In this document: in pieces, positions 3,081 through 9,830 of the stretch
Numbering within the stretch: the stretch's first letter is position 1
Layout of the letters: every line of letters starts with the position of its first letter
Assembly (NCBI GenBank): GCA_046758745.1
Contig: JBHIAV010000013.1
Span: forward strand, 1 to 64,000
Direction of reading: 5' to 3'
Length of the DNA: 64,000 nucleotides
Source of the DNA: Gemmatimonadota bacterium
GTDB taxonomy: Bacteria; Gemmatimonadota; Gemmatimonadetes; Palauibacterales; Palauibacteraceae
Notes under the pieces: generated by a model
What the model saw: only the letters and a program-made list of their open reading frames with translations
What the model was told of the DNA's origin: nothing
Databases searched by the model: none
Made by a program: the position numbers and the translations under genes

Positions 3081-3667
3081 ACCTCCTCCAGCTGGCCGAA
3101 AGCGTAGCGCAGCCGATAGAGGCCCAGCAGGCCGAGCAGCAGGTGCACGGGAAGACCCATCACGTTGAAGTAGTCACCGTCGATGCGGCGGACGAGAGAA
3201 GAGCCGTACCCCTGGATCGCGTAAGCTCCTGCCTTGTCGAGAGATTCGCCGGTGGCAACGTATTCGGCACACTCGGAGCGAGCAAGCGGGCGAAACCACA
3301 CCCGCGTCTCCTCCACTGCGGCTTCCACCCGATCGCCGTGCGCCAGCGCCAGACCGGTGAAGACGCTATGCGCGCGACCGGCGAGCCTCATCAGCATCTC
3401 GACCGCCTCCTCGCGGTTCGCCGGTTTGCCGAGGAGCTGTCCGTCCACGGCCACCAGCGTATCGGCGGCGAGGACAATCTCGTCGGGCTCCCGGGAGACG
3501 GCGATCGCTTTCTCCGCCGCGATGCGCACGGCTGCTTCGCCGGGCGTCTCCCGCGGGTCCCAGCGCTCGTCGACGGAGGGCGGACGAAGCTCGAAGCAGA
3601 GACCGAGGCGCGACAGGATCTCTCTGCGACGGGCCGACGCCGACGCGAGGACCAGCCTGGGGATCAC
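3077..3667 (-). CDS. maf: Maf/YhdE-family nucleoside triphosphate pyrophosphatase
   Basis: LVLASASARR, AADTLV, LGKP, DKAGAYAIQG, NVMGLP; GTG start overlaps the dtd stop (alternative ATG at 3679). Confidence 0.92.
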   Translation of the reverse strand: MIPRLVLASASARRREILSRLGLCFELRPPSVDERWDPRETPGEAAVRIAAEKAIAVSREPDEIVLAADTLVAVDGQLLGKPANREEAVEMLMRLAGRAHSVFTGLALAHGDRVEAAVEETRVWFRPLARSECAEYVATGESLDKAGAYAIQGYGSSLVRRIDGDYFNVMGLPVHLLLGLLGLYRLRYAFGQLEEV

Positions 3668-4101
3668 CGTTCCATCCATAGAGTGACCGGGCCGTCGTTC
3701 ACCAGCTCCACCTCCATGAGCGCTCCGAACTCCCCGGCCGCCACCGGGATCGTGCCGGTCCGGCACAGATCGAGGAATCGATGGTACAGCCGGTTCGCTT
3801 CCTCCGCCGGAGCGGCGCGAACGAAGGAGGGCCTGCGTCCCCGTTCCACCTCACCGTACAGGGTGAACTGCGACACCACCAGGAGCTCGCCGCGGACCTC
3901 CTCGAGCCCCAGGTTCATCCGGCCCTCGGCGTCTGCGAAGAGCCGAAGGCCATGGATCTTCTGGGCCATCCACCGCAGCTGATCGTCCGCGTCGCCGGCT
4001 GTGAAGCCAACCAGGACGAGCAGACCCCGGCCGATCTCCCCGGCTACCCTTCCCTCTACCCGCACTGTCGCGCGCGAGACCCGCTGCACCACCGCTCTCA
4101 T
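3664..4101 (-). CDS. dtd: D-aminoacyl-tRNA deacylase
   Basis: MRAVVQRVSRA, SQFTL, RRPSF, GEFGALMEVELVNDGPVT. Confidence 0.96.
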   Translation of the reverse strand: MRAVVQRVSRATVRVEGRVAGEIGRGLLVLVGFTAGDADDQLRWMAQKIHGLRLFADAEGRMNLGLEEVRGELLVVSQFTLYGEVERGRRPSFVRAAPAEEANRLYHRFLDLCRTGTIPVAAGEFGALMEVELVNDGPVTLWMER

Positions 4102-4219
4102 CGGGTCGCCTCCTTCAACGCTCCGAGCCACGCCGCGCCGCCCCTTCCCGCGGCCGTCCCTGCCCACCGCGCCGGGTCGCCCCTCCGCCGGCTCCCGGTC
4201 CCGCTCAGTTTCCGCGAGG

Positions 4220-4335
4220 CGTGGATAACGCTCTCCACGCAGCACGGCCAGACGCCTCGCACGGCCGCATCACAATTCCACAATTTTCCACAAGATATTA
4301 ACACCTTATCCACACATGCCCTTTTTTCGAAAAAC
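4220..4335. promoter_or_regulatory. DnaA-box cluster (candidate oriC or other DnaA-binding locus)
   Basis: Perfect TTATCCACA at 4306-4314; TTTTCCACA 4284-4292; AATTCCACA 4274-4282; ATATTAACA 4295-4303; opposite-orientation CGTGGATAA 4220-4228; AT-rich patch in an otherwise GC-rich sequence. Confidence 0.7.
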
Positions 4336-4470
4336 CAGCTCTGGGACGTCGCTCCCGAAGGCGGCGTTCGGGGATCCACCGGGGCCGGGCTGCCCAGGCG
4401 GAAAGCGCCCGGCCAGCAGGAGATACGGGGAGACCATGTGTCCGGGAAGCGGAAGTGGGAGGAAACACCG

Positions 4471-4515
4471 ATAAATACTCAGCCCCCGGCGCTCCGAAGA
4501 GCGTCAGGGGCTGAG
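4471..4515 (-). terminator. intrinsic terminator-like hairpin
   Basis: Minus strand: CTCAGCCCCTGACGCTC-TTCG-GAGCGCCGGGGGCTGAG followed by TATTTAT; C(UUCG)G tetraloop. Confidence 0.7.
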
Positions 4516-4720
4516 GGAGGATTTCTTTTCCGCACCGTCGCGTTAATCTTGGTCGGTTGCGCTTACCTTCCAAGACTCAACGGGCCTGGCACCATCACTC
4601 CCGACCAGCTGTGCGGCGGTCGTTCTCGCGGGGAGTCCGTCCCGCCGCGCCGGGAAACCCGTTGTCGCGTAGCCGGTACAGCGGCCTTCCGCGTTAGGCC
4701 GGTGCCTCCTCCGGCGCACG
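4471..4720 (-). ncRNA. candidate structured non-coding RNA, family unknown
   Basis: Bounded by a sigma70-like promoter and a terminator; several nested stems with G-U pairs that favour the minus strand; no credible ORF. Confidence 0.55.
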
Positions 4721-4725
4721 GCCTC

Positions 4726-4753
4726 AACATAATCTAAAATTTACGGGCGTCAA
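4726..4753 (-). promoter_or_regulatory. sigma70-like promoter
   Basis: TTGACG-N16-TATGTT, with an A/T-rich UP-element-like tract upstream (about 4773-4790). Confidence 0.65.
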
Positions 4754-4933
4754 GCCCGGCTTCGCCGCAATCCTTGTTTTTTAAAATTCTTCTTCCTCCG
4801 ACCCGCCCCGCGCGCGCACATCCGAGAGCAAAGAATCGGGTTTGCTTTCTCGTGCCTCCGCCGGGCGATCCGGACCCCGGCATTCGGCCCCCACCGCCGC
4901 CCGCGCAGAGACGGGTGTGGCCCCTCCCTCCGT

Positions 4934-7063
4934 TCACCGGGCCGCGGGTGCCGCCCCAGACGGGAAGAGCTTGCGGCTCTCCTCGAGGAGGCGGCGGGCG
5001 TCGAGCGTGACCCCTTCGCTCCGGATGCGCTCGATCACCCGGTGCAGAAGAGCATTCGGCGGCAGCGTACGCCGGAGCCCGTCCACGCCGCCGACCAGCA
5101 CGAGCATCTCCCGGCTCCGTGACAGGGCCACATTGAGCAGGCGAGGGAAGTCAGGGTTCCGCCGCTCGTTGAGGAACCAGCTGCGCGCGGGAGGCGCGTC
5201 GACCGTGTCGAACACCACCACTGCCTTCTCCCGTCCCTGGAACCGATGGATGGTGCTGATCTCGAGCTGTCGCGGCGCCACCGGCCCCAGGCGACCGCGG
5301 GCGAGGGAGGCCAGCCGGCGAATGTGTACCCGGTACGGAGCCACCACCGCCACGTCGGAGAGGCCGCGGCGAGCCAGGATCTCGAGGAGCCGGAGCAGCA
5401 CCTCCAGGTGCTTCGGGTTGGATCTGGATCCCTCCGCCCGCACCACGGACGGCCGGAGGGTCGTCGTATCGACCAGGACAAGCGGCGCCGCGGCGAGCGG
5501 GCGGCGCGCCACCTCCGCTGCATCGCGCAGCCGACCGCCGTAGAACACGTCGCTGACGAGGGCTCGGATCGGTGGAGCCATGCGGTATTGCTCGACGAGC
5601 ATGGCGCACAACCGGTCGCGCTCGCTCGGCAGAGCCGGCTCCCCGGCGGGGCGGTCGGGGACGATCCCCGCCTCCCGGAAGGCATCGCGGGCGAGCCAGC
5701 GGGCCGCGCGCCCGTCGCGGGAGACCACCACGGCAGGCAGCTGCTGGAAGTCGCCGATCGCGATGGCCCGGCGGGAGGCCCGTGCGGCGGCGACGAGGAC
5801 GCACGGCAGCGGCGCGGTGCTCGCCTCGTCGACGATGACCGAATCGAAACGTAGCCCGGCCAGCTCTTCCCGTACGGAGAGCCGGGCGAACGTGGATACG
5901 ACCACGTCGGCTTCGCCCAGGACCAGCCGCGCGGCGCTCTGCATCTCGCCTACCAAGCGGCCGAGGCGCGGCGGAAGAGAGGGGTCCTCCGCGCCGCGGG
6001 CCGCCGCCAGAAGCCGGCCGAGGCGTGCCCGTAGCCCGCCGGGCGGCGTGCTGCGGGGTTCGGGCCCCGCGCCATGGAGCCGGGAACCGGCGCCGTCGAG
6101 CTCGGGCCCCGCGCCGTGGAGCTCGACGCCCGAGCGGCGAGCCCCGCGACCGGTCGTGCGTCGCGCCGCCCCACCGGCGGCGCGCCGAGGCCGCCCTCCG
6201 AGCAGCTCCCGCTCCAGATCCGTGATGGCGTCCTCGAGCCAGCCACCGGGACCGGACGCGAAGCGATCGAGGGCCGCCTCGAGGGAGAGGCGGAGATCCC
6301 CCGTGACGCTGAACTCCGCTCCCAGCCGCACGATCCGGTTCGCCGTCACGCCCGTCGGCCCCAGGCTGTTCGCGACGCGTTCGGCCGCCTCGTCGACCGC
6401 GGCGTTGGTCGTCGCCACCACGAGCACCCTGCCCCGCTCGGCCAGCTCGGCTGCCGCGTGCCCGAGTAGCCGTGTCTTTCCGGTCCCGGGAGGGCCCCAC
6501 ACGAACTGGACATCGCTGCCGAGCATCCGACGCAGCGCCGTTCGCTGCGAGTCGTTCAGCTCGTCCGACTCCGGGCGTCGAGGCTCCTCCTCGCCGGTTC
6601 CGGGAAAGAGCCTTCCGAAGAGCCGCAGGGCCGTCTCGGGGTGGAAGAGGTCGGGTTCCCTCCCGATCTCGGCGAGCCGATCGGCCAGCGCGTCGAGGAG
6701 CCAGGTCGGATCGAAGGCGAGCTCGGCGTGGCCCGGGTGCCGACCCAGCCACTCCGAGGTGGTGAGTCGCACCGCGGGTCGGTCGCGCTCGAACGCCGTG
6801 ACGAAAGCGAGTCCCTCGCCCGCGTCGCACTTCACACGTACGGCGTCGTCCGTCCGGATGTCGTAGCGGCCCGCAGGGAGCTCCCACTCGTACAGGAAGC
6901 CCGAGCCCGCCCACTCCTGGAGGTGCCCCCCGGTGGCGGGAACCGGCCGATCGAGGCCGCGCCGCACAAGCCGGTCCCGGACGGCCCGGGCCTCGACATC
7001 GACGGCCTCCAGGCACCCGTCCACGACCTCCCTCAGCGACTCGATGATGGCCGGATTCGTCAT
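4934..7063 (-). CDS. superfamily 1 (UPF1/DNA2-like, AAA_11/AAA_12) helicase
   Basis: GPPGTGKT, ATTNAAVD, IVDEAS, GDFQQLPAV, EQYRM, TIHRFQGREK, RLLNVALSRSR. Confidence 0.9.
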   Translation of the reverse strand: MTNPAIIESLREVVDGCLEAVDVEARAVRDRLVRRGLDRPVPATGGHLQEWAGSGFLYEWELPAGRYDIRTDDAVRVKCDAGEGLAFVTAFERDRPAVRLTTSEWLGRHPGHAELAFDPTWLLDALADRLAEIGREPDLFHPETALRLFGRLFPGTGEEEPRRPESDELNDSQRTALRRMLGSDVQFVWGPPGTGKTRLLGHAAAELAERGRVLVVATTNAAVDEAAERVANSLGPTGVTANRIVRLGAEFSVTGDLRLSLEAALDRFASGPGGWLEDAITDLERELLGGRPRRAAGGAARRTTGRGARRSGVELHGAGPELDGAGSRLHGAGPEPRSTPPGGLRARLGRLLAAARGAEDPSLPPRLGRLVGEMQSAARLVLGEADVVVSTFARLSVREELAGLRFDSVIVDEASTAPLPCVLVAAARASRRAIAIGDFQQLPAVVVSRDGRAARWLARDAFREAGIVPDRPAGEPALPSERDRLCAMLVEQYRMAPPIRALVSDVFYGGRLRDAAEVARRPLAAAPLVLVDTTTLRPSVVRAEGSRSNPKHLEVLLRLLEILARRGLSDVAVVAPYRVHIRRLASLARGRLGPVAPRQLEISTIHRFQGREKAVVVFDTVDAPPARSWFLNERRNPDFPRLLNVALSRSREMLVLVGGVDGLRRTLPPNALLHRVIERIRSEGVTLDARRLLEESRKLFPSGAAPAAR
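6060..6122. repeat. in-frame 21-bp tandem repeat x3 inside the helicase gene
   Basis: tcgggccccgcgccatggagc / cgggaaccggcgccgtcgagc / tcgggccccgcgccgtggagc, encoding LHGAGPE-LDGAGSR-LHGAGPE. Confidence 0.8.
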
Positions 7064-8473: not shown

Positions 8474-8672
8474 GGATCGGCGCAACGGAAGGAGCCGGAG
8501 GGTCGGAACCGCCGTCTCGCCATGGCGGTTACCCGGCCGAGCCGGGTCTCGCTCTCGCATGGGGAGACGTCCGGCCGCTATACTCGGGCCCCGGGCGAAC
8601 GGCGCGCGTTTTGCCGCCGGGGCGTCGAGAAGCGGACGCGGCCGCCCGGCGAACCGCGAAGCGAGGAGCGGG

Positions 8673-9134
8673 ATGACGAAGGCTGGAGAGATGGCGCCCG
8701 AGTTCGAGCTCACGGCGGACGACGGTCGCACGATCCGACTGCGCGACCTTCGCGGCCGCCGCGTGGTGCTCTTCTTCTATCCGAAGGATGACACGAGCGG
8801 CTGCACCAAGGAAGCGTGCGGGTTCCGGGACAGCCTGGAGGCCTTCACCTCCCGGGACACCGTCATCCTCGGCGTCAGCCCGGACGACGAGGCCTCGCAC
8901 GCCAGGTTCCGGGACAAGCACCGACTGAACTTTCCGCTCCTCGTGGACGCCGGCCATCGGGTGGCCGAGGCGTACGGCGCGTGGGGGCTGAAGAAGCGCT
9001 ATGGACGCGAGTACGAGGGCATCCTCCGGACGACATTCGTCATCGGACCCGACGGGCGGGTCGAGCGTGTGTACGAGCGAGTGAGGCCGGACGGGCACGC
9101 GGAGGAACTCCTCGAGGCGCTCCCCGTGGGCTGA
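8673..9134 (+). CDS. bcp: thioredoxin-dependent peroxiredoxin (BCP/PrxQ)
   Basis: FFYPKDDTSGCTKEACGFRD, RTTFVIG; GAGGAG RBS. Confidence 0.95.
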   Translation: MTKAGEMAPEFELTADDGRTIRLRDLRGRRVVLFFYPKDDTSGCTKEACGFRDSLEAFTSRDTVILGVSPDDEASHARFRDKHRLNFPLLVDAGHRVAEAYGAWGLKKRYGREYEGILRTTFVIGPDGRVERVYERVRPDGHAEELLEALPVG

Positions 9135-9152
9135 GAGGAGACGGTCTTCGAC

Positions 9153-9830
9153 ATGGGACTTTCGCGTCGGGTAGCCGCTGCGGTCGTGGCGGTGCTGGCC
9201 GGTCCTCTCGTCGGGTGCGGGGGAGCCGGCGCGGCGCAGCAGCCCTCGATCGTGCCGGAGGACCAGGCCGTAATCCTGGAGCGGGCCGATCGGGCGCGCG
9301 TGAAGGGAGACAGCTCGGCACCGATCCGCATGCTGGAGGTATCGGACTTCCAGTGTCCCTTCTGCGCCCGCTTCAACGCCGAGACGCTGCCGGCGCTGGA
9401 CAGCCTGTACATCCGGACCGGCCGCGTCCAGTACGTGTGGTTCTCCTTTCCGAACCCCGGCCATCCGCTCGCGTGGCCCGCCATCGAGGCGGCGTTCTGC
9501 GCCGGGGCCGTCGGCAAGTTCTGGCCCATGCACGACCTCATATTCGCCGGCCGGGACGAGTGGGGCGGCTCCACCGATCCCATGTCGCACTTCGTGAGCT
9601 ATGCGCTGTCGCTGGACATCGACGAAGCGTCGTACGCCGCCTGCCTGCGCGAGGACCGGCCGGCCCCACTCCAGGTGAGAGACTACGAGCTCGCGCTGAG
9701 GGCCGGGATCTCGAGCACCCCGTTCTTCGTGCTCGGCGATGAGGTGGCGCTGCGGGGCGCGCTTCCCCTGGAGAACTTCCGCCGCACGATCGACAGCCTG
9801 CTGGTGGCCCGCGGAGGCGCGGACCCCTAG
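9153..9830 (+). CDS. DsbA-family thioredoxin-fold lipoprotein
   Basis: Lipobox-like LVGC, SDFQCPFC, STPFF cis-Pro loop. Confidence 0.9.
   Translation: MGLSRRVAAAVVAVLAGPLVGCGGAGAAQQPSIVPEDQAVILERADRARVKGDSSAPIRMLEVSDFQCPFCARFNAETLPALDSLYIRTGRVQYVWFSFPNPGHPLAWPAIEAAFCAGAVGKFWPMHDLIFAGRDEWGGSTDPMSHFVSYALSLDIDEASYAACLREDRPAPLQVRDYELALRAGISSTPFFVLGDEVALRGALPLENFRRTIDSLLVARGGADP

Follow-up and report, generated by a model that had tools for sequence, protein, structure and literature searches.

What is encoded between a helicase gene and dtd in the 64,000-nucleotide (nt) stretch of Gemmatimonadota DNA analysed here (GenBank assembly GCA_046758745.1, contig JBHIAV010000013.1, positions 1 to 64,000; hereafter the window)? 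A sequence-only reading of this DNA had proposed a stand-alone structured RNA of unrecognised family, transcribed from the minus strand toward a cluster of DnaA boxes, and had suggested that it might be a divergent 6S-like RNA or a large riboswitch controlling the dtd operon. We conclude with high confidence that the segment is a real, independent RNA gene, and that the family it represents is new and undescribed. New families of large structured RNAs with good support seldom turn up in bacteria, and each has tended to reveal new biology; the present RNA combines clean covariation, a pseudoknot that locks its ends together, and near-invariant bulges.

Data and scope

All coordinates are positions in the window, and the RNA is read from the minus strand. 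The bacterial family in which the RNA occurs is designated f1 and its sister family f2; G-numbers denote genomes, g-numbers genera, and L-numbers loci. The assembly that contains the window (the own genome) comprises 3.08 Mb and is 87.4% complete. Covariation was evaluated on an alignment of 23 sequences and a structure of 71 pairs in 10 helices, pseudoknot included. The covariance model derived from the RNA alignment has 251 positions and 66 pairs, while self-pairs of the palindromic elements (10 in all) were counted over 51 sequences.

A promoted and structured RNA

The transcription unit is defined by the following features:

4748-4753, minus strand: -35 hexamer TTGACG of the RNA's own promoter
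4726-4731, minus strand: -10 hexamer TATGTT, separated from the -35 hexamer by a 16-nt spacer
4719-4476, minus strand: structured RNA of ~245 nt (covariance-model match 4473-4722, 242.8 bits; BLAST conservation 4720-4476)

Proceeding on the minus strand from the helicase gene to dtd, one meets a promoter, a GC-rich stretch of ~245 nt, a long hairpin capped by a UUCG loop, a spacer, and an AT-rich segment of DnaA boxes (4334-4220). The promoter that the sequence-only reading had picked out, TTGACG-N16-TATGTT, is the sole sigma-70-like site within 3600-5400 (shuffle mean 0.2), and a -35 element, an A/T-rich spacer and a -10 equivalent occur at the same distance from a conserved 5' GUGC in 30/30 related loci. 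In these relatives the -35 element reads (G)TTGAC or TTGCA at the equivalent place (30/30 loci), and the -10 element varies among TATACT, TATAAT, TAGATT, TAGAAT and similar forms. Judged from the spacing to the -10 hexamer, the RNA would begin at 4719, and its 3' end is placed, provisionally, just past the terminal hairpin.

The RNA strand folds with -127.2 kcal/mol (z = -4.5), a stability that none of 200 shuffles attained. The opposite (plus) strand is also stable (z = -4.1), and folding energy alone therefore cannot decide the strand. Across the alignment, 92.4% of 1618 cells are paired, compared with 84.4% after shuffling and 36-44% with the partners slid; G-U pairs occupy 124 of these cells, and reading the opposite strand lowers pairing to 86.5%. 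This asymmetry and the promoter jointly support the minus strand, which had earlier been chosen from G-U pairs in the window. Changes on both sides of a pair were found in 37/71 pairs versus 20.4 in shuffles, which bears out the covariation in relatives that had been asked of a genuine RNA, and none of 500 shuffles reached the observed value in any of five structure measures.

A coding function was considered and rejected: open reading frames (ORFs) that overlap the RNA match no Pfam family, and single-base insertions and deletions occur inside conserved blocks of the alignment. Both observations argue against coding and agree with the earlier statement that no credible ORF is present. Stop-free frames across the region, common in all members, are uninformative at 65-70% GC. 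One plus-strand ORF (3781-4737) overlaps dtd, the DnaA array and the RNA, has no Pfam family, and is most likely a GC-rich artefact.

A fold closed by a pseudoknot

The structural elements, in order from the 5' end, are as follows:

4719-4715 / 4706-4702, minus strand: P0, GUGC(G)/GGCAC; 96.4% of cells paired, with a U-A to C-G double change in G026
4712-4707 / 4521-4516, minus strand: P1, GGAGGA/UCCUCC, 5' strand in the P0 loop; 99.3% paired, both-side changes in 3/6 pairs
4701-4697 / 4686-4682, minus strand: P2, CGGCC/GGCCG, a hairpin spanning 4682-4701 with apical loop 4696-4687
4681-4674 / 4537-4530, minus strand: P3; 81% paired, both-side changes in 4/7 pairs
4664-4656 / 4586-4578, minus strand: P4, base of the long arm 4578-4664
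4655-4649 / 4605-4599, minus strand: P4a, UCCCGGC/GUCGGGA, in the long arm
4648-4644 / 4617-4613, minus strand: P4b, GCGGC/GCCGC, in the long arm
4643-4618, minus strand: tip of the P4 arm, 30-110 nt long among members
4576-4566 / 4556-4546, minus strand: P5, a hairpin spanning 4546-4576; 92.8% paired, both-side changes in 6/9 pairs
4515-4499 / 4494-4478, minus strand: 3' terminal hairpin, CUCAGCCCC...UUCG...GGGGCUGAG; 97.8% paired, 5/16 pairs never vary

RNAalifold independently recovers the main helices and the closing helix P1; the 5' hairpin P0 (GUGCC/GGCAC) was added to its fold. Since the GGAGGA in the loop of P0 pairs with UCCUCC to form P1, the two make up a classical H-type pseudoknot. 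Helices P4, P4a and P4b are paired in 86-93% of cells, with both-side changes in 13/21 pairs, and the loop of P5 is near-invariant (GGAAGG..AGCGCAACCGACC). All-against-all covariation for extra tertiary pairs yielded phylogenetic noise only.

Much of this fold had been anticipated. The helices GUACCG/CGGUGC (within P3), CAACGGG/CCCGUUG (within P4) and UCCCGGC/GUCGGGA (P4a), along with a side hairpin that corresponds to P5, were all drawn by the sequence-only reading and are all recovered by RNAalifold and supported by covariation; the C(UUCG)G hairpin at 4515-4478 is present. A further helix, GCGGCGG/CCGCCGC, survives in part: five of its seven pairs are conserved as P4b and the other two are not. 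The hairpin P0 with its end-to-end pseudoknot, the hairpin P2, and the palindromic elements described below were absent from that reading.

All members have the 3' hairpin stem, and its lower part never changes in sequence, as would not usually be expected of a plain terminator; a scan for the intrinsic-terminator consensus did not call it. A U-rich tail follows the hairpin in ~9/25 loci, including the window (UAUUUAU), and the remainder carry a tail of the CAUC(C/U)A type. Most genera have (U/G)(A/G)CAUC(C/U)A in the 8 nt past the hairpin (4470-4477 in the window), and the other genera a U-rich stretch; where conserved, these 8 nt may be a processing or protein-binding tail.

Three elements conserved in their symmetry

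Three unpaired elements of the RNA are palindromic, and what is conserved in each, through double substitutions, is symmetry rather than sequence:

4693-4690, minus strand: P2-loop palindrome, CGCG (UCCGGA, ACCGGU, UCAUGA, UUCGAA, CUCGAG or CCGG in relatives)
4611-4606, minus strand: bulge 1, CAGCUG, on the 3' side between P4b and P4a (variants UAGCUA, AAGCUU, CCAUGG and CCGCGG)
4594-4587, minus strand: bulge 2, UGGUGCCA, a palindrome with two G-U pairs, between P4a and P4 (mostly GGUACC or GGAUCC in relatives)

A palindrome of at least 4 nt is present in 27/27 distinct P2 loops (33% when shuffled) and one of at least 6 nt in 13/27 (6%); the corresponding counts are 14/14 (35%) and 8/14 (6%) for distinct forms of bulge 1, and 31/37 (45%) and 25/37 (9%) for bulge 2. 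The inner two pairs of bulge 1 are complementary in 51/51 sequences, with four pair types between them. Among the 10 self-pairs, 8 show changes on both sides, and the self-pair covariation score is 0.163, versus 0.071 in shuffles (0/500 as high) and 0.03-0.06 when the pairing is slid.

Because a palindrome of 4-6 nt cannot fold on itself, the simplest reading is that each element pairs with the same element of a second RNA, and three elements conserved solely in their self-complementarity would predict RNA-RNA self-assembly in a molecule of only ~245 nt. We regard self-association of the copies through these palindromes as plausible, although we stop just short of favouring it. Several observations tell against it, namely: (i) the covariation reflects few independent events among related sequences; (ii) the outer pairs of bulge 1 are unpaired in 17/51 sequences, and those of the P2 loop in 28/49 in a column count that is partly affected by misalignment; (iii) the window's own P2 palindrome has just 4 nt and is shifted by one base; (iv) bulge 2 has a central mismatch in two genera; and (v) in the type represented by G010 and G025 (g11) a hairpin takes the place of bulge 2, its four-base loop being mostly of GNRA type, so that bulge 2 could be a mini-hairpin instead of an intermolecular duplex.

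Distribution within one family

BLAST detected the segment in 25/36 other f1 genomes and in 0/24 f2 genomes, with an identity of 70-80% over exactly 4720-4476; in the own genome it is single-copy. With the covariance model the RNA was found in 28/36 f1 genomes, in 0/24 f2 genomes and, in a 151-genome sample of the phylum, in 6/6 genomes of f1 and 0/144 of other families, outside-family counts that rest on the 13-34 first-look candidates scored per genome and may therefore miss divergent homologues. The RNA is thus lineage-specific, as had been surmised. It is missing from three f1 genera (g9, g10 and g20), while genus g15 has a second full-length copy (148-151 bits).

Beyond these genomes, metagenome contigs yielded the RNA at 18/27 loci that hold the loop motif. 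Public genome contigs gave a full RNA at 5/121 loci caught by a loose motif, which was too degenerate for its purpose (121 loci, 5 real), and all five are titled as Gemmatimonadota metagenome-assembled genomes. Plasmid and phage collections gave no match to the RNA. DNA of the window is present in public runs from hydrothermal-vent metagenomes. The RNA may serve as a lineage marker for a Gemmatimonadota family that has not been cultured, and offers a first non-coding RNA through which to study it.

The RNA is always followed by a DnaA-box array

The segment downstream of the RNA contains the following features, of which only the spacer is assigned a strand:

4335-4475, minus strand: spacer from the RNA to the array, unconserved, 39-320 nt in relatives
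4334-4322: AT-only palindrome TTTTTCGAAAAAA, at the head of the DnaA array
4314-4306: DnaA box TGTGGATAA, perfect, in the phased array 4274-4314
4292-4284: DnaA box TGTGGAAAA, in the phased array, with a degenerate repeat between boxes
4282-4274: DnaA box TGTGGAATT, in the phased array
4228-4220: opposed DnaA box TTATCCACG, one half of the inverted pair of relatives

The cluster toward which the RNA had been proposed to be transcribed is real, conserved, and always downstream of it. A common design recurs among the loci: the AT palindrome, then 3-4 repeats of the TGTGGAnAA type at a phase of 10-11 bp, and ~60 nt further on an inverted pair of boxes, TT(A/T)TCCAC-N4-5-GTGGAT in relatives. A regular expression finds the AT palindrome in 26/30 loci (the other four have looser variants), and palindrome, phased boxes and inverted pair can be read by eye in all loci, including those of both paralogues. 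DnaA boxes with at most one mismatch occur in 27/32 loci; in every case they lie downstream of the RNA at a distance of 58-436 nt, and the rest of the ~3-kb loci has none. In the 3.08 Mb of the own assembly there are 2 perfect DnaA boxes, and the array that adjoins the RNA is the sole cluster of at least three boxes. The spacer is slightly C-rich on the RNA strand (C>G in 25/30 loci, mean skew 0.08); a Rho-type C-rich spacer was considered, and the bias is too weak to be relied on.

The genes on either side are:

7063-4934, minus strand: SF1 helicase (AAA_11/AAA_12 by Pfam), 709 aa, upstream of the RNA
4101-3664, minus strand: dtd, encoding D-aminoacyl-tRNA deacylase (Tyr_Deacylase, PF02580, E 5e-56), the first gene downstream of the RNA

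In the window dtd is followed by maf and then by a gene of the IF-2B/MtnA family. For the primary copy of the RNA the order is helicase, RNA, dtd, maf, with dtd at 24/25 genome loci and the helicase gene at 20/25; at metagenome loci the counts are 16/18 and 12/18, respectively. Further away in the window, a long minus-strand ORF (8529-9590) is without any Pfam family.

Departures from this order are instructive. In the genera that lack the RNA (g9, g10 and g20; 5 genomes examined) the helicase gene lies directly next to dtd, and there is no array either. The second copy in g15 sits between genes for an M1 peptidase and a JAB-domain protein, in a neighbourhood that is ordinary chromosomal and in which no plasmid or replication genes were found, and the palindrome and boxes again lie downstream of it. 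In g11 another gene stands between the array and dtd, and the array stays with the RNA. In f2 (L315-L319) the upstream neighbour of dtd differs, with no helicase match by tblastn, and RNA and array are both absent. Comparison of these loci indicates that RNA and array have been gained, lost and duplicated together. The joint losses, the joint duplication and the g11 insertion argue against a leader specific to dtd and favour the view that RNA and array make up one unit, in function or at least in structure.

Two side observations concern these loci. The gene inserted in g11 (L175, L177) is of the YjbQ/UPF0047 type by eye only, and the spacer from RNA to palindrome there is ~40 nt. In f2 (L315-L319) the intergenic region upstream of dtd is short, and in two genomes it has short tandem repeats resembling GGTAGAC and GATCAGT.

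A cis element at a replication origin?

Among the alternatives to a trans-acting RNA, the one that survives best is an origin-linked cis element, in which the array would be an origin or a site that reactivates or titrates DnaA, and strong transcription toward it would be what matters; the structured 5' domain and the hairpin would then set how far polymerase reaches, through termination, R-loop formation, priming or topology. The shared loss and duplication of RNA and array are in favour of this explanation, as are the fixed orientation of the RNA, which is always aimed at the AT palindrome, and the missing U-tract after the hairpin in most members. On the other hand, the spacer between RNA and array is unconserved in both sequence and length, and mere transcription has no need of an elaborate, sequence-conserved fold.

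The evidence on whether the array is the chromosomal oriC points both ways. Besides being the only cluster of its size in the own assembly, the array has no counterpart by dnaA: box clusters are missing from the vicinity of dnaA in the own genome and from a 20-kb radius around the gene in G015 and G030. Toward dtd, three measures all point away from the locus in G010, G012, G014 and G015, in favour of an origin: GC skew (-0.023 to -0.047), the strand of the genes and the polarity of GGGNAGGG. On the helicase side, however, there is no reversal of skew, strand or polarity: skew is neutral (-0.007 to +0.015), genes are spread evenly over the two strands, and the minus bias of GGGNAGGG persists. 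Dense sampling at the locus, at dnaA and in four other genera indicated that skew changes in strength at the locus without reversing, and it should be borne in mind that these genera share synteny and are thus not independent tests of origin status.

The complete genomes G015 and G030 add further evidence against a cis element at an origin, in that the locus lies ~1 Mb from dnaA in both. When G015 was sampled at 200-kb steps, GGGNAGGG was plus-biased at 1.2-2.0 Mb (11 vs 3) and minus-biased at 2.2-3.4 Mb (3 vs 31), a pattern suggestive of a terminus-like convergence at about 2.1 Mb, roughly across the chromosome from dnaA (0.13 Mb). Elsewhere in G015 the polarity is mixed, and an unbiased 7-mer scan together with polarity gave no clear origin; GC skew sampled at the same steps is dominated by local gene strand and is uninformative. 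A weaker cluster of DnaA-like boxes also exists in g10, which has no RNA, in another intergenic region (L246, G024:C38, ~1430-1550) with no match to the RNA model; a loose two-box search for the array in the RNA-less genera returned mostly noise, with a best unfiltered model score of 9.6 bits. Weighing these points, we consider the origin-linked cis element unlikely.

In the own genome, dnaA lies on contig C6 (~94.9-97.6 kb), divergent from rpmH, rnpA, yidD and yidC in the classical arrangement. Its promoter is close to consensus, and its leader is rich in pyrimidines and contains CCUCCUCC; this region on C6 contains no evident Shine-Dalgarno sequence and no DnaA-box cluster. As a candidate target in trans, the dnaA leader was rejected: it is complementary to GGAGGAGG of the RNA in the own genome, and the complementarity is not kept in g16 (G015, G030).

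A leader of the downstream genes?

A second alternative is a riboswitch-like or antitermination leader, whose 5' domain would sense a ligand or protein and set read-through into dtd, maf and mtnA. The RNA is always co-directional with the next gene, its pseudoknotted multi-junction fold with conserved bulges resembles large aptamers, and the hairpin follows directly after P1. Yet P1 and the hairpin, though adjacent, do not overlap, and there is no evident antiterminator pairing (no conserved alternative pairing that could form an expression platform was noticed in a search that was not exhaustive), while the stem of the hairpin is conserved in sequence, in contrast to typical expression platforms. 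No Rfam aptamer class matches. The genes downstream are unrelated across contexts (dtd, the inserted gene in g11, the JAB-domain gene for the g15 paralogue) and begin only after a further 100-700 nt that always include the DnaA array, and three genera have dtd directly behind the helicase gene with no leader at all. The suggestion that the RNA is a riboswitch of the dtd operon is not supported, in view of the g15 copy and the g11 insertion, and we judge a leader of any such kind to be rather improbable.

Comparison with known RNA families

The Rfam scan proposed by the sequence-only reading leaves the family unrecognised. Rfam 15 at gathering thresholds gave 0 matches in the whole 64-kb window, and a permissive scan of 4200-5000 gave just two sub-threshold matches at chance level: a c-di-GMP-II aptamer (19.5 bits versus a cut-off of 53.5 bits), which covers only the P5 hairpin and was taken as chance, and a Giardia snoRNA (15.1 bits). 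The scan of eight relatives returned one unrelated sub-threshold match, outside the RNA, and ARAGORN found nothing in the whole window.

The standard structural RNAs, which had already been doubted for want of their hallmarks, do not match at the RNA locus and are encoded elsewhere. The tmRNA (RF00023) of the own genome is on another contig (C5). No model for signal recognition particle (SRP) RNA (RF00169, RF01854) matches the locus, and the small SRP RNA (RF00169) is found at another locus in 35/36 f1 genomes; the model for RNase P RNA (RF00010) likewise has no match at the locus, and its gene lies elsewhere in 5/5 relatives tested. In the own assembly, incomplete as it is, 6S, SRP and RNase P RNA were undetected. 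Small SRP RNA (RF00169) was matched in 0/24 f2 genomes, whose SRP RNA may be divergent or of another type.

Only the 6S slot remains unfilled. No match to 6S RNA (RF00013) was found in the window, in the own genome, or at E <=10 in 4200-5000, nor at E <=0.1 in any genome of the order (0/61), and a 6S RNA of the order, if one exists, goes unrecognised by Rfam. 6S RNA is normally broadly conserved. A divergent 6S-type RNA that sequesters RNA polymerase holoenzyme would suit that empty slot, the strong promoter, the likely abundance and the paired 5' and 3' ends, but it is very improbable here given the failure of the model to score, an architecture of 4 branch points, two junctions and a pseudoknot versus a closing stem, central bubble and terminal stem, and the absence of the RNA from 8/36 f1 genomes and all other families searched.

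Full-text literature searches, which left aside subscription journals and supplements, found no description of the RNA; supplementary tables of large papers on the discovery of non-coding RNAs, which fall outside that scope, could list its motif.

Proposed mechanism

Taking the evidence as a whole, we lean, by a modest degree, away from a cis element and toward an RNA that stands alone and acts in trans; for action in trans taken by itself our preference is perhaps a little firmer. On this view the transcript would become a free, stable RNA whose ends the pseudoknot and the 3' hairpin protect, and it would not be a leader of dtd. Its three palindromes (the P2 loop and the two bulges of the P4 arm) would pair with their twins in a second copy, so that the RNA would form a symmetric dimer or some larger homo-oligomer. 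A closed assembly, for instance a D2 tetramer, would accommodate three distinct two-fold contacts better than a simple dimer could.

The job of the RNA could be tied to DnaA-dependent control, either of replication initiation or of DnaA-regulated transcription, and the RNA might be a scaffold or decoy for a protein or act through the position of its gene and the timing of its transcription relative to the array. A functional tie to DnaA or replication is, in our estimation, tentative and more doubtful than action in trans. Since the RNA gene is gained, lost and duplicated with the phased array, an assembly, if formed, would be expected to work at the array, where it might link or label the sister copies of the locus, or act on a replication-initiation factor by scaffolding or titrating it. 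This last proposal, a self-assembling RNA as a component of replication control, is speculative, and we hold it to be unlikely as stated.

A number of points weigh against a trans-acting RNA tied to the array. Synteny is family-wide, and the adjacency of RNA and array could be partly inherited linkage. The constant co-directionality with the next gene and the lack of a U-tract in most members make read-through, and with it a role in cis, possible. No target or partner has been identified, and no conserved complementarity to messenger RNA was found in the dnaA leader, the only one examined (own genome, G015, G030). Finally, the ends, abundance and stability of the RNA are deduced from its sequence, and no RNA run is among the public runs that list the locus.

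Comparison with known systems

For a structured RNA coupled to a DnaA array we found no precedent, and five known systems each resemble part of the arrangement. Transcription of mioC and gid at E. coli oriC and RNA II of ColE1 act through transcription itself or through hybrid formation. They share with the present locus a promoter that fires toward a DnaA-box region, and it is these systems that a cis element would resemble; they have, however, no conserved fold with a pseudoknot that ends in a conserved hairpin ahead of the boxes.

6S RNA (RF00013) is similarly strongly promoted, stand-alone, end-paired and ~200 nt long, whereas the new RNA has no match to its model, a branched and pseudoknotted fold versus a bubble-containing rod, and a narrow taxonomic range; the earlier suggestion of a 6S-like RNA thus fails on both architecture and its confinement to part of f1.

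Retroviral genomes dimerise through kissing-loop hairpins. The P2 hairpin may be compared with these, having a loop of 8-11 nt in which a 6-nt palindrome is flanked by purines and drifts in sequence while its symmetry is kept, as in the 13 of 27 distinct loops counted above. The biological setting is unrelated, and the P2 loop is one of three candidate contacts in a larger RNA.

In gene placement the nearest precedent is CcnA, a cell-cycle non-coding RNA of 182 nt that is encoded inside the origin of Caulobacter crescentus, is flanked by CtrA boxes, and acts as a base-pairing small RNA on the ctrA and gcrA mRNAs (PMC8959179). Both are independently transcribed non-coding RNAs of similar size (182 vs ~245 nt) at or beside a DnaA-box region, and the location of CcnA is thought to tie its expression to replication control (PMC8959179). 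The precedent is for placement only, as the RNAs are unrelated: CcnA is alphaproteobacterial and has no sequence relation to the new RNA, whose fold is far more elaborate and covarying, whose complementarity to messenger RNA is not conserved in the one leader compared, and whose array is only a candidate origin. If the array is an origin or a site of DnaA control, the new RNA would provide a case, apart from CcnA in the Alphaproteobacteria, of a structured RNA linked to the initiation of replication.

In assembly the closest systems are OLE, ROOL and GOLLD, which were recently shown to form RNA-only homo-oligomers (PMC12286853). These RNAs are much longer and come from other lineages, and no Rfam family matches the new RNA. 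They are structured bacterial non-coding RNAs of unknown function whose quaternary structure is built by intermolecular RNA-RNA contacts (PMC12286853), and the three covarying, self-complementary elements of the new RNA suggest, from sequence alone, that it may follow the same principle.

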